Source of the DNA: Trichormus azollae HNT15244
GTDB lineage: Bacteria; Cyanobacteriota; Cyanobacteriia; Cyanobacteriales; Nostocaceae
DNA: 40,000 bases
Direction: 5' to 3' (one strand)
Assembly: GCF_039871975.1 (NCBI RefSeq)
Contig: NZ_JBDPLL010000001.1
Shown here: positions 2,549 through 32,473 of the stretch, piece after piece
Numbering within the stretch: the first letter of the stretch is position 1
Layout: each line of letters starts with the position of its first letter
Notes under the pieces: model-generated
Told to the model about the DNA's origin: nothing
Databases searched by the model: none
Seen by the model: only the letters and a program-made list of their open reading frames with translations
Position numbers and translations under genes: made by a program

Positions 2549-3966
2549 ATGGAAAGGAACCTACCACGAAAACTAGACACAGAGATATTGAAGCAGTTGG
2601 CAACAGAGCAACTGGTAGAAATCATTATTGAGGAGGGGAAAAGTATAGAGAAGCTAACAAATAGAGTAGTAGAAATAGAGAAACTCAAAGTCAGTAGAGA
2701 TTTAGATAGCATCAGATTATGGAAAGCACCGTCGGGAAACATCCTCAAAAAAACCGAGAACCAACAACAAGATAAACCGGAATAAAACCAGACACTAAAA
2801 CGGAAACCAGGAGGACAACCAGTCCATAGGAGAAAAACGAGAAAGGGGTTGGGTGGAGTAGATAGATTTGAGATCCTGGGACCACAAGTGTGTAGATGGT
2901 ATGGTCAGGGGTAATTGTTTGGCGAACCAATAAAAATGGAAACACAACAAGTAGGGGAGTTAGTGGACAGGCCAATCGAAATAGTAGTATATCTAAAGAT
3001 ATAGGTGTATTTGCAGTGTGTGTGGAGAAACACAAACGGCAGACTAGTCACCAGAGATAGTACTAGGACAAGATATAGGAATCAGACTACAAGCTTTTTT
3101 GGGATGGCTCAATAACTACGGGCATTTAGCCTATGAAAGACAACAAGAACTTTTGTGGGAACTGGGTCAAATAGAAATTGGAGTGGGAACATTAGTAGCT
3201 AGGAATGAAGGATATAGATGGTGCAGTGGCTCAAATTGATAGCCTCAAACAGTGGATAAAACCAACCCAGCCTAATATCCTTGCGGATGAAACACCCTGG
3301 GTAGTCAAAGGGGTGAAAGAATGTTTATGGATTTTTTTTGCCAATACTGACTTCTCTTGATTTCATGGTCCTGATACTCCTTCTCCTGCCGAATTAGAAT
3401 CCATTGTGGGTTATAGTTACTCTGGTGTAGTCAGTTGTAATAACTTTACTGCCTATAACGGTGATCCGCTCAAAGCTCAACACAAATATCAGGTACATCT
3501 ACTCCGTCTCTTCAAGAAACTAATCAAGATTCCTGGCTGAAATCACCAAGCAGTTGGCACACAATTCATCGACCTGATAGATGAAAGTTTTAAAAACTAC
3601 GCTTTATTCCAACAAACCCAAAACCTTGATGAATTCTTGACTTGGGCATGCTAGTTTCAAGCAAAAGTTGAATCTTCCATTCATTCATTGATAAAGCCGG
3701 AGGGAAACCTGGTAAACTTTTACCTTCCTTACCCAATAGACCTTGATAATTATTGAGCTGAACTAAGGTTACTTTTAGCACTGACAAAAGGAAAAGTCTG
3801 TGATGGTTCTATTTCTATGGAGCGATTGCAACATACTGCCAATTTATTGACGGTTATACAAACTTATTGCCCTCAAGCACTGTCTCTAATTGAGTTTTTT
3901 GACCAACCTATCAAAGGGATGGTTAACTCTGCTTTGCAGACACCTTCTTTAATCCCTCTAGCTTAG
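2549..3966 (+). pseudogene. IS66-family transposase, multiply frameshifted
   Basis: ORF 2549..2785 is a coiled N-terminus (MERNLPRKLDTEILKQLATEQLVEIIIEEG). Downstream frames give a KPGGQPVH-type segment, a Cys pair, ADETPWVVKGVKECLW (about 3290) and further transposase-like text to about 3966. Many stops are present. Confidence 0.6.
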
Positions 3967-3997: not shown

Positions 3998-4249
3998 TTA
4001 CCCTTCAAGCACACGCACATAAATAGCCCGTGCTATGTCCCGCTCGATAGTCATTGGCAGATTACTAACTTTAATCACAAAAGTGGGAAACTGCTGTTCT
4101 ACAAGAACTTGAGTTCCTGTCTTTATACCCATTGATATCAGTTTCTTTCTAATGATTTCATCTTGAGTTTTACAGACAGTGACAATACCTTGCTCACCAG
4201 TTTTCAGCAATTCTAAAGAGCAGCCCATGACACTAAAAGGAGTAAACAT
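3998..4249 (-). CDS. FeoA-domain small protein (no feoB partner visible; an IS66 pseudogene lies immediately downstream)
   Basis: 83 aa. LELLKTGEQGIVTVC...LISMGIKTGTQVLVEQQFPTFVIKVSNLPMTIERDIARAIYV fits the FeoA SH3-like pattern. Confidence 0.6.
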   Translation of the reverse strand: MFTPFSVMGCSLELLKTGEQGIVTVCKTQDEIIRKKLISMGIKTGTQVLVEQQFPTFVIKVSNLPMTIERDIARAIYVRVLEG

Positions 4250-4331
4250 TGCAGAATAAGAATAACAAAAGATAAAAATTGCAATGATGAAAGGTGTTTA
4301 TCATCTTCCATCATTGTTAAATGATAAATCT

Positions 4332-6666: not shown

Positions 6667-7143
6667 TTAAATATTTCCTACTTCTGGGAAATGGTTAGCT
6701 AAATCAACGCCTTTTTTCACAAAGTTTTCTCCCTCTTCAGCTAATTTTTCTAGGGAGTCAAAACCATAACGGTGAGCATCGCGTAAAGTCTTTACAGCTA
6801 ACAATAAACGACCAGAAAAGACTAATGCCCAACCAAAACCTTCATGACCTAAGTCAACTACCACGTTAGATATTAGTCCGGTTTCTTTTTCAATGCTGGC
6901 TGCGACAGCACGGAAAAAGGCGTTGATCCGAGAAATAGTTGCTGGGTCTACTTCACCTTCAACAGAAATTTCTCGTTTCTTTTGTTTAGTGACAACAAAC
7001 GGTTTCAAAATTAATTCATCAGACCAACTCCGGTAAAAACCATAGCTGTCTTGCGCCCGGATTTGTTGGACTAAACTCTTGAGAAAAGGTGAAGTAATTT
7101 CTGTGTTGGTAGCAGTTCCGTTCACACTGTTATTTCCACTCAT
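6667..7143 (-). CDS. NifX-associated nitrogen fixation protein (DUF269 family)
   Basis: 158 aa. IRAQDSYGFYRSWSDELIL...LGHEGFGWALVFSGRLLLAVKTLRDAHRYGFDS. It has a 4-nt overlap with nifX. Confidence 0.85.
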   Translation of the reverse strand: MSGNNSVNGTATNTEITSPFLKSLVQQIRAQDSYGFYRSWSDELILKPFVVTKQKKREISVEGEVDPATISRINAFFRAVAASIEKETGLISNVVVDLGHEGFGWALVFSGRLLLAVKTLRDAHRYGFDSLEKLAEEGENFVKKGVDLANHFPEVGNI

Positions 7144-7559
7144 ACCGTTGCTTCGTTTTCAACCTCATCTGCAAAGTTTAATGTTTTTAGTTGTAAGGCT
7201 TTACGCAACCAGGGGGGAGGATTACCTTTAAGAGTTTTAACTAGTTTAGTCAGGACTTCTTCAATTTTTTCTTCCTCTGATTTAGCCTTTACTGGAGTCA
7301 CACCTTTTTTAATTAGGCGTGCAGCAGCACTACCACCAATGGCGACAACATAAATAATTGTGCAACCATTAAGCGCCTCAAGTTTAGGTGTGATTTTATC
7401 TTCATTGCCATCTTCTGTGAGGTCCCCTTCAAATTTCAGAGTTTCTAGAAATTCATATCCATGATCGGAAATTTCATAGACATCAATTTCTTTAGCCCAC
7501 CCAAAGTGGGCATTAACATGAATTCTATCTGTGGTGGTAAAGGCGATTTTCACTTTCAT
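7140..7559 (-). CDS. nifX: FeMo-cofactor biosynthesis protein NifX
   Basis: 139 aa. MKVKIAFTTTDRIHVNAHFGWAKEIDVYEI...IYVVAIGGSAAARLIKKGV. Confidence 0.9.
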   Translation of the reverse strand: MKVKIAFTTTDRIHVNAHFGWAKEIDVYEISDHGYEFLETLKFEGDLTEDGNEDKITPKLEALNGCTIIYVVAIGGSAAARLIKKGVTPVKAKSEEEKIEEVLTKLVKTLKGNPPPWLRKALQLKTLNFADEVENEATV

Positions 7560-18418: not shown

Positions 18419-18545
18419 GATTATTCTCCTAGGTGGGAATTGGTGATTGGTGATTGGGTATTGGGTATTGGAGATTGGGTATTGGGAAGAGTTTTTTTCC
18501 TAATCCCCAGTCCCTAATTCCCCAGTCCCTAATCCCCAGTCCCTA
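18419..18545. repeat. Long STRR heptamer block in the nifB-fdxN spacer, running into the nifB 3' end
   Basis: The left arm is ATTGGTG/ATTGGGT units. The right arm is three TAATCCCCAGTCCC-type units. The last CCCCAGT unit encodes the terminal GTGD of NifB. Confidence 0.85.
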
Positions 18546-19968
18546 CATACTGCTGGTAAAATTCAAGTGCGACTTTTTCAATTACGTCGTAAGCTTCCAC
18601 AGTCTTTATCCCTGCTGCTTCTAGTTTCTCTTTCGGACAGTTACCAATTTTGGCAACTAAGACTGCTTTACAATCTGCGATCGCTTTCATTATATTTTCT
18701 GCAGTCGCTTCTTCGCCGTATCCACCTTGACAATATTGGTCGATTTTGCGATGACTGATAAAGCGTACTTCATTACCATCAACTTCGTACACTTGAAATT
18801 CCTTCACATGACCGAAGTGTTGATTAACTAATCCACCACCTTTGGTCGCTACAGCAACTAAAATTTTCGGACTGTTGGCAACTTTCTTACCAGTTTGTAC
18901 CTTGGCTTTTGCTAGTTTAATTTCTTCTCTAAATTTCTCAATGCCCTCATGAACTTCCTGGCGTGTTTCCAGGTTATATTCTGGAGACATTTCCAAGAAT
19001 TTATCTTTGGTAAATTCCTGGCTGCGGTCTTCTCCTAATAATCCTACCGCATCTGCTCGGCACTGGCGACAGTGACGCATCATTTTCATATTACCAGAAC
19101 AGTTATCTTGAACTTCTTTGAGTTCTTTTCCTGTTGGACCACGTTGACCAGTTAAACCGAAATGTGTCCCATGTTCTGGTGCAGAAATTAGCGGCATTAT
19201 GTTGTGTAAGAATGCACCATTCTCACGAATCATTTTGTTAACTTCCACCAAGTGACGATCATTAATTCCGGGAATCATCACAGAATTAACTTTACACAAA
19301 ATGTCAGCTTCTTTTAAAGCTTGCAGTCCTTCCAACTGCCTTTCTAGCAGAATCTTTGCACCTTCCACACCTTTATAACGCTTGCGTTTGTAATGAACCC
19401 AAGCATAAATTTGTGCTCCGATTTCTGGATCAATGGTGTTAAGGGTGATAGTAACGTGATCTATATTTAATTGTTTGATGCGATCAATATATTCTGGTAG
19501 CATCAAACCGTTAGTTGATAAGCAAAGCTTAATATCTGGTGCTTTATCTGCAATCAACTCAAAGGTACGGAATGTTTTTTCAGGATTTGCTAAAGGATCA
19601 CCAGGACCTGCAACTCCCAACACTGTCATTTGGGGAATTTTACCTGCAATTACCAACACTTTATGTGCGGCTTCTTCAGGTGTGAGTAACTCACTCACTA
19701 CTCCAGGTCGGCTTTCGTTAGCACAGTCATACTTGCGGTTACAATAGTTGCATTGAATGTTACACGCTGGTGCAACTGCAACGTGCATCCGTGCATAATG
19801 GTGATGTGCTTCTTCACTATAGCAAGGGTGTTTGGCAATCCGTTCTTTGAGCTTTTCGTCCATTTCTAGAGCTGTGCTGCTGTCGCAACCACAACCACCT
19901 GATTTGGCTTGCTTGATATTGAGTTCCTGTTCGGAGGAGGTGAGGAGTCCTGTAGCCGGTAGTGTCAT
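18529..19968 (-). CDS. nifB: Radical-SAM FeMo-cofactor biosynthesis protein NifB
   Basis: Radical SAM motif [14 protein letters not shown] and a C-terminal NifX-like domain ([17 protein letters not shown]). Start set to the [12 protein letters not shown] Met (19968..19966). The track ORF extends to 20079, but that extension is not NifB-like. Confidence 0.95.
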
Positions 19969-20134
19969 TGAATTTCGCAAAGGTCGGTGGACTAGATAGC
20001 CACTGTGGGAGATGCCGTTGCTACTTCCAATGCCTATGAACTGAAGTCGCGTCTTATACTTGCCTCCCAATAATACCAAATTTGGATAGTTTCGGATAAT
20101 TCTGGATAATTTTAGTCAGATTTGCAATTTTGGT

Positions 20135-20163
20135 AAAAGCCTTTTTTTCATAAAAAGGCTTTT
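20135..20163 (-). other. Terminator-like hairpin inside the nifB 5' leader region
   Basis: AAAAGCCTTTTT (20135..20146), loop TTCAT, AAAAAGGCTTTT (20152..20163). This is a 12-bp perfect stem with A/T runs on both sides, about 170 nt 5' of the nifB ATG. Confidence 0.5.
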
Positions 20164-20469
20164 CATCTAAAATCTGTCTTGGAAAGTTATGATCGCAGGT
20201 TTCCTCCGCTCAGACTTTCCACAAAATCCAAAATTAATACAAGGGTGGGCAGTAAATCTTTGGGGTTCGGCTGGTCTGTGTCAATATTTGGGTCTTGGGT
20301 AGATTTTGTGTATACAGCGGCGACTTCTATTCACTTCAGGCATGGTGCTATCTCATCCCTCCACTCACTTTAGGCTTCTAACTTTGTTAAGGAGCTTTAA
20401 GTAATTGGCGATAAATGATTTATAGCAGCCCTTTTTAGATAGGTGACTGGTTGATCTGGGATAGGATTT

Positions 20470-20625
20470 ATTGGATTTATTACGTTTGTACTCAGATTGA
20501 GAAACCCTAATCTTTTCAGGATTACAAAAATTAAATAATATTTTTTCGGGTAGAGGTTCTAGTATTTTTCAGTTAGGGTACGAGTATTTATCGAATGGGG
20601 TTCAGGATTTATTTGTACTCAGTCA
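20470..20625 (-). promoter_or_regulatory. GTAC-box module upstream of nifB (copy A of a two-copy element)
   Basis: ATTTATTACGTTTGTACTCA (20475..20494) and GGGTAGAGGTTCTAG...GGGTACGAG...GGGGTTCAGGATTTATTTGTACTCA (20548..20621). It is homologous to 31885..32040. Confidence 0.6.
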
Positions 20626-21183
20626 AAAGCCAATATCTATAAGGATTTGGGTAAGATTTTGATTTATTTTACTATATATTCATCATGTACTCAAACACTC
20701 CCCAAATCTTGCCAAAGGCGATAATTTACAAGGATTTGAGGTGGAAAAACTGGAGTAGGATAAGCCGTACTACTCCAGATACGTGCGAAATTCAATTCTG
20801 TATACAACATATCATTTTTTTTGAGGTAAAAATGCAGTTCATATTCTTTTAAGTTTTCAATGATTAATAATCTAAATTGCACTTTTAATCCATGTTGAAT
20901 CAGGATGATGGCTTTAATAAAAGCATAACTCTTAATGCAGATTATTTGCAAGTAATTTATTTTTTAGAGCTTTTTTGTTAGTTCTCACGTTTTTAAAGCT
21001 GTTGAAGAATGAGAAATAATATCAAATTAAGAAATAGTGAATAGGGAAAGAAATTAATCGTACTGAACATTCAGCGATCACCTATGGCTGACGCCACCCT
21101 AGGTTATTGGCGGTGAGCGGAGCGCAATCACTACACTGTAATTATGGCGAACAAACATAGTGTAGAAAAACAGGGGTGGAGCC

Positions 21184-22125
21184 ATGAAAGCTATTGTGAT
21201 CCGTCGTTATGGTTCTGCGGATGTGCTGAATTTCCAAGAGGTGGAACAACCAAAAATTAAGCCTGATCAGTTACTTGTAAAAGTTCATGCTAGTAGTGTT
21301 AATCCCATTGACTGGAAAACCCGTAAGGGGATGTTAAGTATTTTGACCGGGAATAAATTCCCGCTAATTCTGGGTTTTGATGTGGCTGGGGAAGTCGTCG
21401 CAATTGGTTCACAAGTGACGCGCTTCAAAGAAGGAGATGCTATTTATGGCAGCACCAGCTTTCCTGGAGGCGCTTATGCGGAATTTGCCGCAATTTTAGA
21501 CAATTTAGCGGCTCCCAAACCCAACAACTTGAGTTATGCAGAAGCAGCCACCATACCATTAGCGGCGCTAACTGCTCTACAAGCCCTGCGAGACTTGGGC
21601 AACATCAAATCAGGTCAGAATGTATTGGTTAATGGTGCTTCAGGCGGTGTGGGCATTTTTGCGGTGCAAATTGCTAAGGCGTTGGGGGCTGAAGTGACTG
21701 GTGTTTGCAGTTCTAAAAATTTGGATTTGGTCAAATCTCTGAATGCAGATTTTGTTATTGATTATACGCATCAGGACTTTACAGAAGGTAATGTGCAGTA
21801 CGATATTATATTTGATGCAGTTGCTAAACGAGCATTTTCTAATTGCCGAAAAGTTTTAAAGGCAAATGGGGTTTATGTTTCTACCCTTCCTACAGCGGAA
21901 GTAATTGTACAGGGTTTTTTAACTATGTTCCTTCCTGGTCAAAAAGTGAAATTTGTGTTAGAGAAGCCTAATAGTCAAGATTTGGTTTATTTAAAAGAGT
22001 TAATTGAAACAGGTAAAATGCGAACAGTGATTGATCGCACATATCCTCTGGAAGAATTAGCGGCTGCTCATGAGTATAGCGAAGGTGAGCGCACAGTAGG
22101 TAAGATTGCGATCGTACTGAGTTAG
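21184..22125 (+). CDS. NAD(P)H-dependent medium-chain dehydrogenase/reductase (quinone oxidoreductase-like)
   Basis: 313 aa. VKVHASSVNPIDWK, GFDVAGEVVAIG, the Rossmann loop VLVNGASGGVGIFAVQIAK, and the C-terminal GKIAIVL. Confidence 0.85.
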   Translation: MKAIVIRRYGSADVLNFQEVEQPKIKPDQLLVKVHASSVNPIDWKTRKGMLSILTGNKFPLILGFDVAGEVVAIGSQVTRFKEGDAIYGSTSFPGGAYAEFAAILDNLAAPKPNNLSYAEAATIPLAALTALQALRDLGNIKSGQNVLVNGASGGVGIFAVQIAKALGAEVTGVCSSKNLDLVKSLNADFVIDYTHQDFTEGNVQYDIIFDAVAKRAFSNCRKVLKANGVYVSTLPTAEVIVQGFLTMFLPGQKVKFVLEKPNSQDLVYLKELIETGKMRTVIDRTYPLEELAAAHEYSEGERTVGKIAIVLS

Positions 22126-22502
22126 GATTTCTATTTGATATCAAATCCGTTTTCATATATCTGGTAATTGGTAACTGGTAATTCGGTAGAGGACAAAGTT
22201 TATGATTTCTAATGAAGCGGACTTGGTATGATTTGTGAAGAATAGACATCCTCAATGTTGAGATGACAAATTGTAAGAATTCAGGAGTCACGAACAACTT
22301 TTTCAGCAAGCCCTAGGTATTTTTAGCGTTAGCTTGAAAAAGCTGACTGCTGATGGCTGTTCGCGTAGTGTGCCGTTAGGTATTAGCTGAATGCTTATCA
22401 CAAATTTTATAAGTTTTTCAAAAAGTTATCTTGTTACTGAGAACAAATTGAGAATTTTTAGTTAACCTTTAAAAAATACTACTCAAAATCATTAAACGGG
22501 TT

Positions 22503-23254
22503 ATGCACAGGTTATTATCTGGACCGTTGACGACAGAAAAACTAAGGGTTAAGATTGCGGGTTTACCTGCATCATTACAAGGTAAAAAACTGGTGCAGAT
22601 GTCAGATTTTCATTACGATGGTTTGCGATTGTCAGATAAAATGCTAGAAAGAGCGATCACCATCTGTAACTAAGCACAACCAGATTTAGTTATATTAACT
22701 GGTGACTATGTAACCATAACTCTAGAACCTATTCATCAACTCGCAAAACATTTCAAAAATTTAGAAAGGAATTGTGGGATTTATGCTGTACTTGGCAACC
22801 ATGATATATGTTATGGAAATTCCAAATTACAAATTACAACAGGACTAGAAAATATTGGTATTAATCTCCTGTGGAATCAAATAGCTTATCCACTAGGAAA
22901 TGAATTACCGTTGGTAGGATTAACAGACTTTTTATCCAAAGAATTTAATCCCGCACGAGTCATGAACCAGCTATATAATAGTCTGTCCATACTCATGGAG
23001 GAAAAATTATCATTCCTGGACTTGGACATGGGTTAGTTACTTACTATAAAATAGTGGAAACAATACCCATTAAATTACGTCGGCGAGTACCATTGCTGAG
23101 AAAAAATTACTTTGTAGTCCCACATTGGGAATGCTCACAAGGGTTACATCAATTAGGCAAGAATCAACTATATGTAAATAGGGGTTTAGGAACTTATCTC
23201 CCAGGACGTTTCTTTTGTCCACCAGAAGTTATAATCATAACTTTAATAAATTAA
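22503..23254 (+). pseudogene. Calcineurin-like metallophosphoesterase, disrupted
   Basis: MHRLLSGP...LVQMSDFHYDG, then an in-frame TAA at about 22670, LVILTGDYV, VLGNHD, a frame change at about 22980 (HTHGGK region), and ending LYVNRGLGTYLPGRFFCPPEV. Confidence 0.8.
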
Positions 23255-23770
23255 TCATCTCCTCCATTCCTTACCATGATCAAAATCGTTGTAAATTACG
23301 ACAGATAGAAGTCAGTAAAATACAGCGATTTATTGGTGAAATAATAATGCAATAAAATGAGAAAATCCGAATTAATGATATCAACTAAGGTGGACAAACT
23401 TTGTAATCTACCAATCAGAACTGTGCATCTTTCATTCCAACTAGGCAGGCATTTCTGGCTGTGCGTTCAAAAACCTCCAATAACAATTAAATGAAATCAA
23501 GGGGAAAGCACTAGCAAGCCACAACCTAACAGTGATTACGATAACATTAGAGCAGGAGGCTCAAGCTCTAAGTCAGGTATTTATAAGAAAATTTTTTCTG
23601 AAACTTTTAACCTTTGTGTACCTTGCTTTTAATCTGTCATTAATTTTTTTCTCTGTGCAGTATTTTACTAAACTTGAATTTTGTTAACCTATTGCAATAA
23701 TTGTGAAATCTTTCTTAATCTTATGGCTATTTATTCCTATTTTTGCAGTATCTCTGAATGCAATTTGGTA

Positions 23771-23964
23771 TCAACTACCACCACTAGTAACGCCACCAGT
23801 GCGACGGGGATCAGCGGCGGCTGATAAACCAGGAAACCAAGTTGAGGATGCCATAGAGTAGCCTGAACTCCCCCAAAATACATAGAATGTTTGGGTAAAC
23901 GATGGGTGATAAGTCTTTCTATTTCTTGAATGCCAATACCTGCTTCAATGACTATAGAACCCAT
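23771..23964 (-). pseudogene. Gamma-glutamyltransferase C-terminal stub with a frameshift
   Basis: GSIVIEAGIGIQEIERL...YFGGVQA, then after a frame change SAAADPRRTGGVTSGGS stop. The rest of the gene is missing; an IS5-like fragment abuts it. Confidence 0.65.
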
Positions 23965-23971
23965 TTGGGAT

Positions 23972-24336
23972 CTATGAAGTAGCTAATCTTCGGAGGATAA
24001 GTCTGACAAAACAGAGATGAATCTTAGTCGTCGCATTTTCCAAAGTTATTTCAAAATTTTTGACCAAGCTTTTACAGCGTTCCATCCAAGCATTACTTCT
24101 TTCAATTACCCATCTGGCTTTAACTGGCAGAAAACCAGACTTCCCTTGCTTGGCCTTTTTCTCCTGGGATGGTTTAGGAGACAATTGAAATTAAATTGTA
24201 CTCATGATTTCTGGATCAACCAAGACTAACTCTGCTTCTAGTTTGTCAGGATGATAACCGTTGTCTAAAAGAATTGTCGTTTTAGGCAGTTCCACTGGTT
24301 TTGATTTGAAGAAGTCGATATCAATTGTCAACATCT
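23972..24336 (-). mobile_element. IS5-family transposase, C-terminal fragment only
   Basis: ILLDNGYHPDKL, then an internal stop, then GFLPVKARWVIERSNAWMERCKSLVKNFE...CFVRLILRRL, the typical IS5 C-terminus. Confidence 0.7.
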
Positions 24337-24399
24337 AAATCAGCCCTTGGTCATCAGAAATATTAGCCTGAGTACAGTGAGTAGAAAAGAGAAAGCCGA

Positions 24400-24732
24400 G
24401 AATATCTACTGCCAGATGCCTTTTGATAGCGTTCGTGGAGTTGTAAAAACAAAACCCCTTGGTCTGAACTATCTAGAATTATTTATCCTTTGCTGCTTCA
24501 ATTTCATATCCGATGCAGTGATAGCATAAAATTAGTTGAGGTTAATACCGCGCAAAATTTTAAACTATCTAGTACTTATAGGCTTAAGTCCCTACCAACT
24601 TTATTACTAATTAAAAATGGTATTGTTAAGGAGCGTTTAGAAGGATTTAGGTCACGAGACGATTTAGGTCTGGCACTAGAAAACATTCAACTCAATTATA
24701 ACAGTATTTACCAAAAAAAATGGATATGCTAA
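24400..24732 (+). pseudogene. Thioredoxin with frameshift and degenerate active site
   Basis: The C-terminal half is IKLVEVNTAQNFKLSSTYRLKSLPTLLLIKNGIVKERLEGF. The expected WCGPC position reads PWSELS, and the N-terminal part is in another frame. Confidence 0.6.
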
Positions 24733-24912
24733 AGATTACAGGTCAAAATTACAGGATCATAGGATCTTGAGTTTGTAAAGTTGTAAGACTACCTAGTAAT
24801 TGTGTTAATTCTGTGATTAAGTACCTGAGCAAAATTAATTGAATTTTTTTGGAAAAAATAAAAATCTCTGTAGTGTTTATCTGTTAGCTGTTCCCTCTGC
24901 CAAATGCAAAAT

Positions 24913-25200: not shown

Positions 25201-25974
25201 CTACTTAATTGCAGCCCTTAATGTTGTGAGAGTTTTACCAATTGCCACAAAGTTTGAGTTGTGTGAAAGTTGCTGAAGAGTTGCTGGATCGCTTTCTAGA
25301 ACAATCTTGTTATAGATATTAATAGTTTCGTTCAGTTTGTCAGCGTTAACAGTTACTGCTTCATTAGTCTTAGCGATAGTTAAACCAGCTTTTGACGCTT
25401 TAATGCTGGCTACTAACCGTGCCTGTGATGACTCAAGTGAAGGAAGACTGGACGTACTATAAGAACGGGGGAATTTGATAATCTGAGATGCGGTATCTGT
25501 TAATTCTTTTGCTAATTGTGGAGAAAGCCCATTTGAAATTAAGGATGCTTGCAGTCTATTAGTGTTAATTGGTAAGAATATAGCAGCACGACCACTACCA
25601 AGTATACCAGCAGCAGCATTATTCAACTCATGTACAGCCGTAGGTGAAAGGTCAATACGTAGAGAACCATCCGCTGCTTTTGTGACAATGACATTAGGCG
25701 TAGCTCCGCTTGCAGATCCTGCTACGCCTTTACTGGGTGATAAAACAGGGTTATTATTTGAGCCAGTGTTTCCACCTCCACTCCCAGAACCTGCTGTACC
25801 TTTACTGGGTGATGAAATAACTGTACCACCAGAGCCAGTGTTTCCACCTCCACTTGCAGAACCTGCTGTACCTTTACTTGGTGAATTAGTTTGAGCTTGA
25901 TTTGTTAACTGCCAAGTAAACGAGATTAAAGGTGTCAGAAGGAGGGCAATAACAAATGTTCTGATTTTCAACAT
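25201..25974 (-). CDS. Secreted protein of unknown function with three Gly/Ser-rich SPSKG repeats
   Basis: 257 aa. Signal-like N-terminus MLKIRTFVIALLLTPLISF. Repeats are SPSKGTAGSASGGGNTGSGG / SPSKGTAGSGSGGGNTGSNN / SPSKGVAGSASG. It lies 32 nt downstream of the beta-barrel gene. Confidence 0.7.
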   Translation of the reverse strand: MLKIRTFVIALLLTPLISFTWQLTNQAQTNSPSKGTAGSASGGGNTGSGGTVISSPSKGTAGSGSGGGNTGSNNNPVLSPSKGVAGSASGATPNVIVTKAADGSLRIDLSPTAVHELNNAAAGILGSGRAAIFLPINTNRLQASLISNGLSPQLAKELTDTASQIIKFPRSYSTSSLPSLESSQARLVASIKASKAGLTIAKTNEAVTVNADKLNETINIYNKIVLESDPATLQQLSHNSNFVAIGKTLTTLRAAIK

Positions 25975-26006
25975 GGTTATTCTCTAAATTGTAAATGTTG
26001 AAGCGT

Positions 26007-27152
26007 TTATTTAGGCAGGAAATTGAAACCATAGCCCACTGTCATAAGAAATACAGTACCGCCTGCACTGTTATCCGTGAGATCAGCACCTTGGAGAGTA
26101 ATAGTCAAAGGAATGGTAGGCACAGGGACTAATGAAATCCCGGCATTTAAACCGACTCCACTCCAACCCAGACCTATACCTAACTGGGGATGAACTTGCA
26201 GACCCATTCCTACAAATATACCTGTACTCTCATTACCTTGTCGGAAGTCGCCACCGCCTGCTCCTATAGAAAACGAGATGGCCATTGGATTGACAGGATT
26301 GTTAGCCTGTAAAAGAGAATATGTGGTGAGTACACCATAGGCACTGGAAGGTCTAATACCTTCATTACCGTACTGGGCAAATGTATTCCAGCCACCAGCT
26401 ACAGCAACTTGAGTGTTGCCTTGAACATAGACAACGCGGTGAGCTTTGAAGTCAAAAGTGCCGTTATAACCGAAGTTTTTGATACTACCGTTGTTGAAGG
26501 TGAATTCCAAACCAATCAGGTTGTAGGCATCTCCTAAACCAAAACCTGCACTCATACTTGCGTCTGGGTCTCCGTTCCTACTCTTACCTGCTGTAGCGCC
26601 CGATCCTACTACAAATAAGTCACCCCAGTCCGCCCCGAAAGCACTCGGAGCGCCAAAACTGAGTCCAGGTTGATAGGTGCCCTTAGGTGGAGGAGTTATT
26701 TTAACAAGGGGTTCAATTAATAAATCCTGGTGTGATTTATTAACATCTAATTTATCACCCGCACTAGTTGAGGCATCTATCTGTTGAGTGATAGTCTGGG
26801 GCTGAGTAGGAGAAAGTTTCTTGGCTTTACCAAAGGTATCACCCAAGCTGGTTGAGGTATCTATCTGTTGGGTGATAGTCTGTAGTTTTTTGAACTGAAT
26901 CAAAGGTTGATTAAGTTCAACAGCTAGCTGTTGGGATTTTTGGCTGATATATTCAGTTGATTTTGTGTTTTGCTCAGTCGCTAATTCCTTGCTTGAGGCA
27001 TCAGTAACTGATCTATCAACCGCAGATGCAGATCTAATAGCAACAGATGTAGATAGGAAAAGGCAACCAAATAGATTTATTCCCATCAACAGCAGCCAAT
27101 TAGCGGAAATTACATTGGCAAATTGGCATTTAGTCAAAGTTATAGTCCTCAC
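26007..27152 (-). CDS. Putative outer-membrane beta-barrel protein with N-terminal tandem repeat
   Basis: The likely start is MGINLFGCLFLSTSVAIRSASA (Met at 27086), which looks like a signal peptide. QTITQQID(T/A)STS(L/A)GD occurs twice (DNA copies 26767..26798 and 26851..26882). The Gly-rich C-terminal 230 aa alternates hydrophobic and polar residues, ending GYGFNFLPK. Confidence 0.65.
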   Translation of the reverse strand: MRTITLTKCQFANVISANWLLLMGINLFGCLFLSTSVAIRSASAVDRSVTDASSKELATEQNTKSTEYISQKSQQLAVELNQPLIQFKKLQTITQQIDTSTSLGDTFGKAKKLSPTQPQTITQQIDASTSAGDKLDVNKSHQDLLIEPLVKITPPPKGTYQPGLSFGAPSAFGADWGDLFVVGSGATAGKSRNGDPDASMSAGFGLGDAYNLIGLEFTFNNGSIKNFGYNGTFDFKAHRVVYVQGNTQVAVAGGWNTFAQYGNEGIRPSSAYGVLTTYSLLQANNPVNPMAISFSIGAGGGDFRQGNESTGIFVGMGLQVHPQLGIGLGWSGVGLNAGISLVPVPTIPLTITLQGADLTDNSAGGTVFLMTVGYGFNFLPK

Positions 27153-28222: not shown

Positions 28223-28426
28223 TTAGGCGAGGCGTTTAGCTTCTACTGTTAGGGGTAAACTTTCCTTAGTTGGAATTTCACTAAATTCTAATTCCCAACC
28301 ATTAGCTAAAGTGAGAACTTTACCTGCATCACTATCTGTTTGTTTAACAACTTCTTCTTCTAGGTCTTTTTTAGCGACATAGACAACCAATGTTCCAGCA
28401 TTATTCATCCGTAGCATTACTTTCAT
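28223..28426 (-). CDS. nifT: NifT/FixU
   Basis: 67 aa. [26 protein letters not shown]...LANGWELEF. Confidence 0.9.
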   Translation of the reverse strand: MKVMLRMNNAGTLVVYVAKKDLEEEVVKQTDSDAGKVLTLANGWELEFSEIPTKESLPLTVEAKRLA

Positions 28427-28688
28427 TTTTTTCCTCAGCAGATTCTAGTTCTATTTTCCGACAACCTATGATGTACCCTGTATCTAAGAAATGCACGGCA
28501 TATATATAGTAAGCTTGCAAAAAAGTTCCTATACTTGCCACATAACCAACGTCTCCAATTCTTGCTAATACTTCACCAATTTCTCTACCGACAAAAGTAC
28601 CATCGTTTTTGATTAGTTTCTTAACTCGGACTTTTTGACCAATTTCAAAAACTGGTTGTGAGTTAAGTTCTATTTCATCGCGTTGCAT
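28401..28688 (-). CDS. nifZ: NifZ
   Basis: Start set to [22 protein letters not shown] (Met at 28688). KNDGTF...GDVGYV...YAVHF is the typical NifZ pattern. It overlaps nifT by 26 nt and nifV by 14 nt. Confidence 0.85.
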
Positions 28689-29808
28689 GGGAATACCTCT
28701 GTTCACTTACTAAATTCAATAACTCTTCTGTGGTGAGACTGCGTTTTTTTAGTGTTGATTGTAAGCGCACTGCATCTAACACAGACTGGGTTTCTTCTGA
28801 GTTTAAAAAGATCCCGTACTGTTGTAACAAGTTAGATAATAAATGCCTTCCAGAATGTTTACCTACTACTAAACGACGTTCCCAACCTACTTCTTCTGGT
28901 GAAAATGGTTCATAGGTTTCTGGGTTTTTGAGTACACCATGAGCATGAATTCCAGACTCGTGAGCAAAGGTATTTTCACCAACAATTGCTTTCCAAGGTG
29001 GGACCTTTGCACCTGATGCAGCAGCAACTAATTGAGATAGTCCTAATAAATGTCGAGTATCAATTCCTAAATCAACACCATAGATACATTTTATTGCCAT
29101 GACAACTTCTTCTAAAGCTGCATTTCCTGCTCTTTCACCTAAACCATTAACAGTGGTATTAACAGAAGTTGCTCCGGCTTTAATACCGGCAATAGCGTTG
29201 GCAGTTGCTAGTCCAAAATCATTATGGGTGTGAATCTCTACAGGAATTGATAAAGTAGATACTAATCGCTTAACTTTGAGGTGAGTTCCAAAGGGATCAA
29301 GAACTCCAACTGTATCGCAAAAACGAAATCTTGATGCACCCCATTCTTGAGCGTATAATGCAACATCCTCGAGGAAGTTTTCATCAGATCTAGAAGAATC
29401 TTCTCCTCCTACTGCAACCCAAAGACCATTATCAACTGCGAAGCCAATACAGTCTTTGAGTCTTTGTAAACTTACTCTCCATTGACCATGAAATTTAGCA
29501 GCGATTTGTATACCAGAAACGGGAATAGCAATATGTATTCTTTCCAATCCACAGGCAATAGAAGCTTTAATATCTGAGATAACAGCGCGGTTCCAACCTA
29601 GTAATTTAGCATCTAAATCTAAGTCAGCAATTGCTTGAATTGCACGAATTTCTTCTTCTCCCATTGCGGGTATACCGACTTCTAATTCAGGAACACCAAT
29701 GGCATCAAGAAATTGTGCGATTGCTACTTTTTCTTCTAAGTTAAAAGCAACACCTGCTGCTTGTTCTCCATCACGCAATGTAGTATCATTAATAATGATT
29801 TGACTCAT
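28675..29808 (-). CDS. nifV: Homocitrate synthase NifV
   Basis: Start set to [16 protein letters not shown] (ATG 29808..29806). Contains [16 protein letters not shown]. The 38-residue hydrophobic extension in the track ORF is unsupported. Confidence 0.93.
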
Positions 29809-30010
29809 CTCAAACATTCCTCTAGCCGAGTTTTTACTAATACCCTTTAACGCTACAATTTCTAGTAATGATAGATGTAAAACAAATATTAAAAATTTTA
29901 AAATAAATGCTAAAAATAGCACCAGTTACTAAATACACTTGACAATATTTAATTATTGCTCAAGAACTCCCAGCATATCTGTATGGCAGAAAACCAAATT
30001 TTGGTTTCAT

Positions 30011-30297: not shown

Positions 30298-30495
30298 TTA
30301 AGCGTGTTCTGCTAACCAATCAAAAATCTTTTCTAGTTGTTCTAAATTAATGAAGCCATACTGCCAAAGTAGCATAGGGATGGGTCCTTTATCTAATTCG
30401 CGGTGTCGCAAAGCAACAGCAATATCCGCTTTTGAAAGTTCCAGTTCATTATGCAAAAATTGAAGTAACTGTTTATCGCTGTTCCGGTGTACCAT
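30298..30495 (-). CDS. DUF2949-type small cyanobacterial protein
   Basis: 65 aa. LLQFLHNELELSKADIAVALRH...PIPMLLWQYGFINLEQLEKIFDWL. Confidence 0.7.
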   Translation of the reverse strand: MVHRNSDKQLLQFLHNELELSKADIAVALRHRELDKGPIPMLLWQYGFINLEQLEKIFDWLAEHA

Positions 30496-30822: not shown

Positions 30823-31053
30823 TTAACTGTGACACCAACAACCTTCTAACCATTCCACCAACTCACAACGAGAAGCTAAAAATTGAATGACTATACTGCG
30901 GACAAGAATTGCTTCTTGCAAACTATTGACTTGTACTCGCAAAGAACCATCTGGAAGACAGGAACAAGTAATCATTAATTCTTGCAAACGGTGATAAATT
31001 TGCCATCTATCACTTAAAGGAATCTGCAAAACTTGTTCACCAAGTGACAACAT
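30823..31053 (-). CDS. Small conserved cyanobacterial protein (resembles the Asr1405/Asl0597 family)
   Basis: 76 aa. DRWQIYHRLQELMITCSCLPDGSLRV...CELVEWLEGCW. It lies 4 nt after cysE. The family name is recalled, not searched. Confidence 0.55.
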   Translation of the reverse strand: MLSLGEQVLQIPLSDRWQIYHRLQELMITCSCLPDGSLRVQVNSLQEAILVRSIVIQFLASRCELVEWLEGCWCHS

Positions 31054-31056
31054 AAT

Positions 31057-31860
31057 TCAACTATCCTCATCATGGTGTTGATTTTTTAGGGTTTGTAGTT
31101 GTTGTTCAAGCTTCTCAATTTGGGAAACCAAGGAACGAATTATTCCTGCTTCTATATCAGGTAACTTGCCATGTTCTAGGGGAGAAAGACGTTTGCTTTG
31201 TTTATGGGAAATAATGCGGCCAGGAATACCCACAACGGTAGAGTCTGGAGGAACATCACGTAGCACAATTGAACCTGCACCTATACGCACGTGATCGCTA
31301 ATTTGAATATTTCCCAAAAGCTTCGCACCGGCACCCACAACAACATTATTAGCTAAAGTTGGATGACGTTTACCAATTTCTTTCCCAGTGCCACCCAGAG
31401 TTACACCTTGATAAATAAGTGCATAATCTCCCACAATGGCAGTTTCGCCAATCACAACACCCATGCCATGATCGATAAATACACCTTTACCAATTTCCGC
31501 ACCTGGATTAATTTCAATCCCGGTTAAAAACCTTCCCAAGTGGGAAATTAAACGGGGAATAAAACCCACTTTACCGATGTGTAACCAGTGCGCGAGACGA
31601 TGTAAACAAAGAGCATGAAATCCAGGGTAACAAAAGATAACCTCTAACCAACTACGTGCCGCTGGATCACGCTCAAAAATGATCCGAAAATCACTCATTA
31701 ATGGCTCAAAAGAACCGCCAGGACGTTGATTTTGCCGCGAGTCTGTAATTGCAGTTTGGGTTTGACTGGTACTCTCTAAAGACTGTTGCATCGGTACTGT
31801 CTGGTTAAAAGAGCCATGTTGTATTTTTCTGCTTATATCAGGTGACGCGAAAGGAGACAA
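31057..31860 (-). CDS. cysE: Serine O-acetyltransferase (CysE; nifP-type position at the head of the nifVZT unit)
   Basis: [20 protein letters not shown], then hexapeptide repeats [24 protein letters not shown]...[13 protein letters not shown]. The true start may be an internal Met (for example M24 at 31791). Confidence 0.9.
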
Positions 31861-31884
31861 AACAGCAGATACCGATTGGATCTA

Positions 31885-32040
31885 TTGAATTTATTACGAT
31901 TGTACTCAATAGGTTTAAGCCCCTATTGTACCCCTATTGTACAGAAGGTTACATTTTTTGTTGGGGTAGGGGTACTAGTTTTTTATCACAGGGGTACTGG
32001 TATTTTTGGGGTAGGGTTTGAGATTTTTTGTACTCAAGAT
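31885..32040 (-). promoter_or_regulatory. GTAC-box module upstream of cysE (copy B)
   Basis: ATTTATTACGATTGTACTCA (31889..31908), 2 x CCCTATTGTAC (31921..31942), GGGGTA(C/G) at 31963/31969/31991/32008, and TTTTGTACTCA (32026..32036). Confidence 0.6.
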
Positions 32041-32473
32041 AGATCTATGTTGCTTATGAGACTTTCAGCGATTTAAGCAAGATATTTTCAGATATATTAA
32101 GTTCTACTCTTATGCTCAGAAACATCACCTTTATGACAGGAAATATAGGCTTTATGTATTTGCTGCTACTATTATTAGTATTAATAGAGTAGAGTTTTGG
32201 TAGCCAAAAACCGGATTTCTTTATTTTGTTTTAGGATTTGTTTGCTTTATGTGCGATTATTTTAAAATAAAAATACGGAGAGTAAAAGTTCGGAAATTAT
32301 AGAGTTTATCTAGGTGCTTATGGTATAATCTAAAAAATGACGAACACCACAAGACTTATGCTCAAAATAGTCCAAGGTATTTATCGAGACAGACAGATTA
32401 AATTTACCGAACTTCCCAAAGATGTAAACAATAGATAAGTTAGATAAGTTTTTTTTGTACTGCTGAGGCAACT

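Follow-up and report, generated by a model that had tools for sequence, protein, structure and literature searches.

Genes and module copies in the window

The window, i.e. the whole 40,000-nt stretch of DNA that was analyzed, carries nif genes in two places. nifB (18529..19968), whose product is closest to NifB of Anabaena azotica SJ-1 (97.9%), is followed by fdxN, nifS, nifU, nifH, and further genes. nifP/cysE (31057..31791), which encodes 244 aa from an ATG at 31791 and is related to hexapeptide transferases and serine O-acetyltransferases, is followed by an asr1405-like ORF (30823..31053), a DUF2949 gene (30298..30495), nifV (28675..29922), nifZ (28401..28706), and nifT (28223..28426); all genes with coordinates given here are on the minus strand. 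There was no ORF of the size of cnfR in the ORF list for the window, for which annotation extends up to 32.5 kb, and the presence of cnfR in the genome is assumed here from what is known of heterocystous cyanobacteria. The interval 22300-24900, between an ADH-like gene and the nifT-side genes, is poor in ORFs and includes a weak match to a DDE-transposase fragment (23972-24184, E 5e-4), which lies between the two module copies described below. Two ORFs of 257 and 381 aa on the minus strand (25201-27152), downstream of a 2Fe-2S thioredoxin-like gene, had no Pfam match and hold internal repeats of 72 nt (in tandem) and 46 nt (copies 84 nt apart).

One promoter architecture is present in two copies, both on the minus strand, which is the gene strand: at 20693..20420 before nifB and at 32110..31833 before nifP/cysE. 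In gene-strand order there is a box 1A, 72-74 nt, box 1B, 33-34 nt, motif 2A, 22 nt, motif 2B, about 70 nt, and box 1C, and downstream of these motifs each promoter has an extended -10 element. The boxes carry TGAGTACA, the gene-strand reading of TGTACTCA, and all are in direct orientation on the gene strand. There are three exact copies upstream of nifB (20693, 20621, and 20494, with TGTACTCA at 20686, 20614, and 20487) and two upstream of nifP (32036 and 31908, with TGTACTCA at 32029 and 31901), where the third copy is a 6/8 match at 32110.

Within the nifB copy, box 1A occupies 20686..20693, at about -274..-281 from the predicted start site, and box 1B 20614..20621; the A/C-rich direct repeats 2A and 2B (20547..20592) have their cores, ATACTCGTACCCT at 20587..20575 and ATACTAGAACCTC at 20565..20553, 22 bp apart; the proximal box 1C, TGAGTACAAACGTAATAAATCCAATAAATCCTATC, covers 20460..20494 (about -82..-48) and fits the pattern of 22 specified bases with which genomes were scanned; and the extended -10 element, TGCTATAAA, is at 20419..20427, with TGCTATAA at 20427..20420 and a predicted start near 20412. 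The nifP copy consists of the degenerate box 1A, AGAGTAGA (32103..32110), box 1B (32029..32036), repeats 2A and 2B (31963..32007) with cores ATACCAGTACCCC (32003..31991) and AAACTAGTACCCC (31981..31969), likewise 22 bp apart, box 1C, TGAGTACAATCGTAATAAATTCAATAGATCCAATC (31874..31908), and the extended -10 element TGATATAAG (31832..31840), with TGATATAA at 31840..31833 and a predicted start at 31825/31824. Inside its 2B-1C spacer is an 11-nt tandem duplication in which CCCCTATTGTA, read on the plus strand, occurs twice (31920..31941). The spacing from 1A to 1B is 72 nt at nifB and 74 nt at nifP, and that from the start of box 1C to the start of the TGnTATAA element is 67 and 68 nt, respectively. 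Relative to the predicted start sites, 2B lies at approximately -140 to -160, 2A at -160 to -183, 1B at -205, and 1A at -280.

The first-pass annotation, made from the letters of the sequence, had proposed one module in the same orientation before nifB and cysE/nifP, and re-alignment bore this out. The 20-mer that it described in the proximal box is indeed 19/20 identical (20475..20494 vs 31889..31908), the distal block (20548..20621 vs 31964..32036) has 56 identities in 75 columns where a hand estimate had given 53 of 74, the 1B-to-1C spacing is 127 nt at nifB and 128 nt at nifP, and the third TGTACTCA is at 20686. The extent that it gave to the module was too short, since the similarity also takes in a 35-nt proximal box at 89% identity (20460-20494 vs 31874-31908), the degenerate nifP box 1A, and the extended -10 element, such that the alignment of the two copies runs from 1A through the -10 element, with the two A/C-rich motifs present between 1B and 1C in both promoters. 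Local alignment of the two 281-nt regions scored 52 compared with 11.5 ± 1.6 (maximum 18) in 300 shuffles, and a profile HMM built from 112 orthologous modules found exactly two copies in the 40 kb (E 6.5e-48 and 3.1e-42).

TGTACTCA itself occurs nine times in the window against an expectation of 1.14, a count reached in 0 of 100 shuffles. The four sites outside the two copies (24197+, 24369-, 26327-, and 28929-) were rejected as module members because they are without every other feature and were missed by the module HMM; two of them adjoin or fall in the weak DDE-transposase remnant, one is inside an unannotated ORF, and one is inside nifV. An ORF upstream of the nifB module (20691..20951, minus strand) had no Pfam match and was treated as spurious. 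No NtcA-type GTA-N8-TAC site was seen by eye within the boxes.

Distribution and spacing of the module

A gene-strand scan of 185,579 species genomes with TGAGTACAANCNTAATNAATNCAATA, a version of box 1C with 22 specified bases for which we estimate about 0.07 matches by chance, returned at least 119 stretches, and all those listed were cyanobacterial, mostly Nostocales; the pattern is stringent and would miss more diverged copies of the alr2522 or nifB2 type. Among the 123 matches listed, 62 were upstream of nifB and 51 upstream of nifP, six were cut by the end of a stored locus and had nifB-type or nifP-type flanks, two were nifP-type promoters from which nifP has been lost, and two were unusual; by inspection there were at most two per assembly among the matches listed. 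The module HMM, run on 962 kb of related loci, found 137 copies (63 at nifB, 61 at nifP, two at asr1405-like genes, one each at vnfH and vnfD, seven truncated, and two unassigned). Since essentially all the copies listed in either search are linked to nif or vnf genes, the module is nif-specific and not a dispersed repeat such as a MITE, and the numerous scattered copies that would have spoken for a repeat were not seen among these matches or in the window.

The module is conserved in orthologous promoters. Upstream of nifP, the whole stretch between box 1A and the start codon could be aligned with five relatives (a 96%-identical metagenomic relative, Sphaerospermopsis, Cylindrospermum stagnale, a 9.5-Mb Nostocales genome, and Fischerella), and box 1A of nifP, degenerate in the window, reads exactly TGAGTACA in Sphaerospermopsis, C. 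stagnale, and Fischerella. At nifB, 57 of 61 orthologues have an exact box 1A, which precedes 1B by 70-73 nt (mostly 71). A TGnTAWAA element begins 67-69 nt past the start of box 1C in all 61 nifB and all 51 nifP promoters (112/112), and at exactly +68 in 50 of the 51 nifP promoters. The 19/20 identity of the nifB and nifP 20-mers is lineage-specific: the four variable positions read CTCC in most nifP boxes and TGAT only in the window and in Anabaena sp. UHCC 0451.

There were several unusual arrangements. In Stigonema ocellatum (L106) and Iningainema tapete (L109) the nifP-type promoter is intact and nifP is missing or reduced to its first codons, so that the promoter, a minus-strand match, stands directly before the asr1405-like gene, DUF2949, and nifV. 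Two loci, one of them from a Nostocales MAG (Iphinoe, L017; the other L009), have divergent nifB and nifP with a module copy each, which recalls the layout in Leptolyngbya boryana. A Coleofasciculaceae MAG (L076) has a nifB-like module and start region (3416-3619) beside non-nif genes (NADAR, a 113-aa ORF, YkuD, and a MurG-like gene), with no nif gene within 6.9 kb of the module; this copy could be a remnant, a further member of the regulon, or part of a mis-binned contig. In the vanadium-nitrogenase locus of a Nostoc-like MAG (L058) there are three CnfR-type modules, each complete and with an extended -10 element (3655-3890, minus strand; 4040-4270, plus strand; 7040-7275, minus strand), including one upstream of vnfH and one upstream of vnfD, which is followed by vnfG and vnfK, while the third diverges from vnfD toward a 135-aa ORF without known family. 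The vnf genes of A. variabilis are described as repressor-controlled, and we found no mention of a vnf-linked arrangement of CnfR-type modules in the literature.

The spacer lengths follow a discontinuous pattern. The distance from 2A to 2B was 22 bp in all 52 nifB orthologues with both cores and in 85 of 88 promoters overall. That from 2B to 1C was 68-70 bp in 57 of 59 nifB promoters (the outliers were 59 and 90 bp), and in nifP promoters it was 59-60 bp in 43 of 50, 81-82 bp in six, and 71 bp in the window, so that across 110 promoters the only values were 59-60, 68-71, 81-82, and 90 bp. The 1B-to-1C spacing was 125-128 nt in 59 of 60 nifB orthologues and 116-119 nt in most nifP promoters. 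The CCCCTATTGTA duplication, one copy of which is absent from the 96%-identical relative L001, makes the nifP 2B-1C spacer one helical turn longer than usual (71 nt instead of 59-60) and accounts for the 128-nt nifP spacing from 1B to 1C in the window; the near-equality of 127 and 128 nt is a peculiarity of this lineage. Because the spacers differ between promoters only in steps of about 10-11 bp, as a face-of-helix requirement predicts, the lengths suggest contact between proteins bound to the distal block and proteins bound at box 1C or the core promoter. There was no statement on 2B-1C phasing in the literature that we found.

Start sites and the nifB leader

The core promoters resemble those described in A. 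variabilis, where nifB1 and nifB2 have an extended -10 element and no -35 (PMC8510180; PMC4284476) and where three conserved cis elements are described (PMC8510180). A consensus scan of 19900-20800 detected no TTGACA-type -35 partner for the nifB -10 element. Start sites in the window are projections from the conserved -10 element and from other strains, namely A. variabilis and PCC 7120. In A. variabilis nifP starts at -33/-34 from the ATG (10.1101/2025.04.01.646610) and nifB1 at -328, downstream of the motifs (PMC4284476), and in PCC 7120 the nifB 5′ end is at -282 (PMC3141674). The A. variabilis nifP start projects onto 31824/31825, 7-8 nt after the TATAAG hexamer, and by the same geometry nifB is predicted to start near 20412. 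Box 1C would then lie at about -82 (nifB) and -84 (nifP), and, given the conserved -10 geometry and the projected nifP start, the whole module would be upstream of both start sites and hence untranscribed.

Predicted leaders are therefore about 444 nt for nifB and 33 nt for nifP. The first-pass annotation had been puzzled by the unequal distances from module to coding start and offered either a very long nifB leader or action of the module at variable distance; the former is the part that stood, as the conserved -10 element and the starts mapped in A. variabilis and PCC 7120 argue that the distances differ through transcribed leaders and not through variable-distance action. Box 1C and the nifB ATG are 526 nt apart in the window, compared with about 380-390 nt in most Nostoc and an overall range of 240-526 nt. 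The excess over the common value of about 386 nt is due to a lineage-specific insertion of about 140 nt in the variable center of the leader (about 20060..20240, minus strand), which includes an A/U-rich hairpin, AAAAGCCUUUUU AUG AAAAAAAGGCUUUU, at about 20139-20170, and there are shorter versions of the insertion in A. azotica, Sphaerospermopsis, and Anabaena UHCC 0451.

The predicted nifB 5′ UTR (19969..20412, minus strand) has conserved blocks and predicted long-range helices. It was strongly conserved in an alignment of 57 Nostocales loci, and RNAalifold predicted long-range helices that close off its variable center, the first ~130 nt pairing with a stretch of ~100 nt whose end is about 45 nt upstream of the AUG. 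Four helices are predicted: H1 (GCCA/UGGC), H2 (a local hairpin), H3 (GUGGAGG.GAUG/CAUCU.CCCAC, with arms GUGGAGGGAUG and CAUCUCCCAC), and H4 (GAAGUCGCG/CGCGACUUC, with arms GAAGUCGC and GCGACUUC). Paired cells made up 98.9% of the leader alignment compared with 33-47% when partners were slid, and double-sided changes were found at seven pairs vs 2.0 ± 1.0 in shuffles, none of 500 of which reached seven. Compensatory changes are in H2 and H4; H1 and H3, being invariant, offer no evidence from covariation. When the window leader and a Nostoc leader were each folded as single sequences, the same helices were recovered (z-scores -4.4 and -3.0). In two Dolichospermum-like MAGs (L016 and L105) the leader is only about 174 nt, with the center and both arms of H4 deleted and H1-H3 kept. 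An Rfam search of 19900-21200 at E ≤ 1 gave only two implausible sub-threshold matches, ceN59 and rivX. A 2026 study that screened 202 cyanobacterial genomes for conserved RNA structures reports elements upstream of nifH and nifK, and its main text has none before nifB. The leader structure could be a control point for the stability, processing, or translation of the entire transcript headed by nifB.

Taken with the spacer lengths, this allows a tentative extension, possible but on balance doubtful, in which the module would be a phase-locked nucleoprotein assembly, with face-of-helix contact made by looping or bending, and the structured nifB leader would add a second control at the level of RNA. 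On that reading the 11-bp duplication would have moved nifP from the 60-bp to the 71-bp class in the lineage of the window, and nifB leaders would be 300-450 nt.

The module as a probable activator-dependent promoter

We consider it highly probable (about 0.9) that both copies are complete promoters of the cyanobacterial nif regulon that depend on an activator, each consisting of an upstream activating region and an extended -10 core with no recognizable -35. The module is the published CnfR (PatB) cis-element of Anabaena variabilis, Nostoc PCC 7120, and Leptolyngbya boryana and is thus already known; the earlier proposal of a shared CnfR-responsive element agrees with the elements published for A. 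variabilis and L. boryana. In A. variabilis the motifs 1A, 1B, and 1C (TGAGTACA; also named CS1-CS3) and the A/C-rich 2A and 2B lie upstream of nifB1, nifB2, and nifP, and CnfR1 activates nifP in heterocysts (10.1101/2025.04.01.646610). In relatives of the window strain nifB1 depends on CnfR1, nifB and nifP reach full expression only with the motifs, and CnfR, which is needed to turn on nifB and to boost nifP, binds fragments carrying the motifs; binding of purified CnfR in vitro to nifB, nifP, and alr2522 fragments of PCC 7120 is reported by work cited in 10.1101/2025.04.01.646610. By this mechanism CnfR, made in heterocysts, would place several protomers on the distal block (1B-2A-2B) and on box 1C, on one face of the helix, and these would help RNA polymerase to use a promoter that lacks a -35, while the start-codon distances of nifB and nifP would differ through their leaders.

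The units under this control are narrower than had been supposed. Coordination of nifB with nifP holds, and extension to nifVZT probably does not, as A. variabilis nifVZT1 has its own start site at -153, without the motifs, and is independent of CnfR1 (10.1101/2025.04.01.646610), and the module HMM found no copy before nifV in the 40-kb window. For these two reasons the second unit probably comprises just nifP, perhaps together with the two small ORFs. Similarly, CnfR was correctly said to drive both nifB and nifP in L. boryana, but nifP there heads nifPENXW and not nifVZT (10.1101/2025.04.01.646610).

Contact of CnfR with every box is only putative, because published deletion data disagree on the motifs: those that matter are 1A and 1B at nifB1 and 1B and 2B at nifP, where the 1A region is inhibitory (10.1101/2025.04.01.646610), whereas in L. 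boryana the 2A/2B equivalents matter and 1B does not, as that paper relays it. It could be, then, that the element is composite, with only a part such as 2A/2B serving as the CnfR site and the TGAGTACA boxes binding a different factor or acting as architectural or bending sites. The two motif types are unrelated in sequence, the effects of the A. variabilis boxes are not the same at nifB1 and nifP and are in part negative, and, according to the L. boryana work as cited in the same paper, mutation of the 2A/2B equivalent abolishes CnfR-dependent activation of L. boryana nifB in Synechocystis while changing the 1B equivalent has little effect. We nevertheless regard a composite element as unlikely, since practically all nifB and nifP promoters have the five boxes together at fixed spacing, no second factor is known for the TGAGTACA boxes, and CnfR alone was enough for activation in a heterologous host according to cited work.

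Far less credible is the suggestion of a leader or small RNA element, also made in the first-pass annotation, by which the module would be transcribed and owe its conservation to RNA structure or to pairing between RNAs. High conservation of the region and the long distance from module to nifB start codon (about 490-720 nt) might be read that way, but every promoter compared has the extended -10 element downstream of the module, always at 67-69 nt, the starts mapped in A. variabilis are downstream of the motifs, there was no credible Rfam match for the module, and conserved blocks separated by variable spacers of fixed length fit protein binding. RNAalifold moreover found no consensus structure on the sense strand of the module (0 to -0.1 kcal/mol, 0-4 pairs) and only -3.3 and -7.2 kcal/mol on the antisense strand, and the suggestion was therefore dropped. 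A MITE or other dispersed repeat that landed by chance in two nif intergenic regions would produce two similar non-coding copies in the same orientation about 11.4 kb apart, and the weak DDE-transposase remnant (23972-24184) does lie between them; yet this explanation has next to nothing left to it when there are only two copies in 40 kb, no terminal inverted repeats or target duplications at either, each copy is orthologous to its own class across Nostocales, and every assignable match among those listed is upstream of nifB, of nifP or its remnant, or of vnf genes, the exceptions being unassigned copies in L058 and L076.

With the CnfR-dependent promoter as the preferred reading, the window is one more Nostocales instance of a known element, a result that is correct but ordinary. 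In heterocystous cyanobacteria the module is the principal switch for expression of nitrogenase, its significance is already recognized in the literature, and it is of practical interest where oxygen-tolerant nitrogen fixation is to be transferred to other hosts. Only the leader structure and the helical phasing are leads beyond the accessible literature; as modest, testable additions there are the strict phasing of distal and proximal parts, the conserved structured nifB 5′ UTR, and the vnf-linked modules in the Nostoc-like MAG.

Among known systems the closest is A. variabilis ATCC 29413 (Pratte & Thiel 2021, PMC8510180; Pratte, Vernon & Thiel 2025, 10.1101/2025.04.01.646610), which has the same motif set in the same order and orientation, the same targets nifB and nifP, an extended -10 element without -35, and a long nifB and short nifP leader. 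It differs from the window in that here box 1A of nifP is degenerate, the nifP spacer has the 11-bp duplication, the nifB leader is about 444 nt instead of 328 nt, and nifP-nifVZT is located 11 kb upstream of nifB instead of downstream of the nif1 cluster; its promoters have been characterized experimentally, whereas those of the window are known from sequence. Work by Vernon et al. from 2017 is reportedly also among the studies of the CnfR1- and CnfR2-dependent nifB1, nifB2, and nifP promoters of A. variabilis. The L. boryana element (Tsujimoto, Kamiya & Fujita 2016, Mol Microbiol 101:411), as described where later papers cite it, is under the same activator family and controls nifB and nifP, with motifs I-II equivalent to 1B, IV-V to 2A, and VI-VII to 2B, but it is a single shared intergenic region between divergent nifB... 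and nifPENXW operons in a non-heterocystous organism. The window, unlike L. boryana, has two separate co-oriented copies, each with its own core promoter. A more distant comparison is with the proteobacterial NifA upstream activator sequence, TGT-N10-ACA, which works with sigma-54 promoters: NifA and CnfR are both oxygen-responsive, nif-specific activators with upstream sequences repeated before several nif operons, and face-of-helix dependence is known for the position of the NifA site. NifA is an enhancer-binding AAA+ protein and CnfR a ferredoxin-like protein with an HTH, the two families are unrelated, and the systems differ in class of sigma factor and in motif, such that the likeness is one of analogy only.
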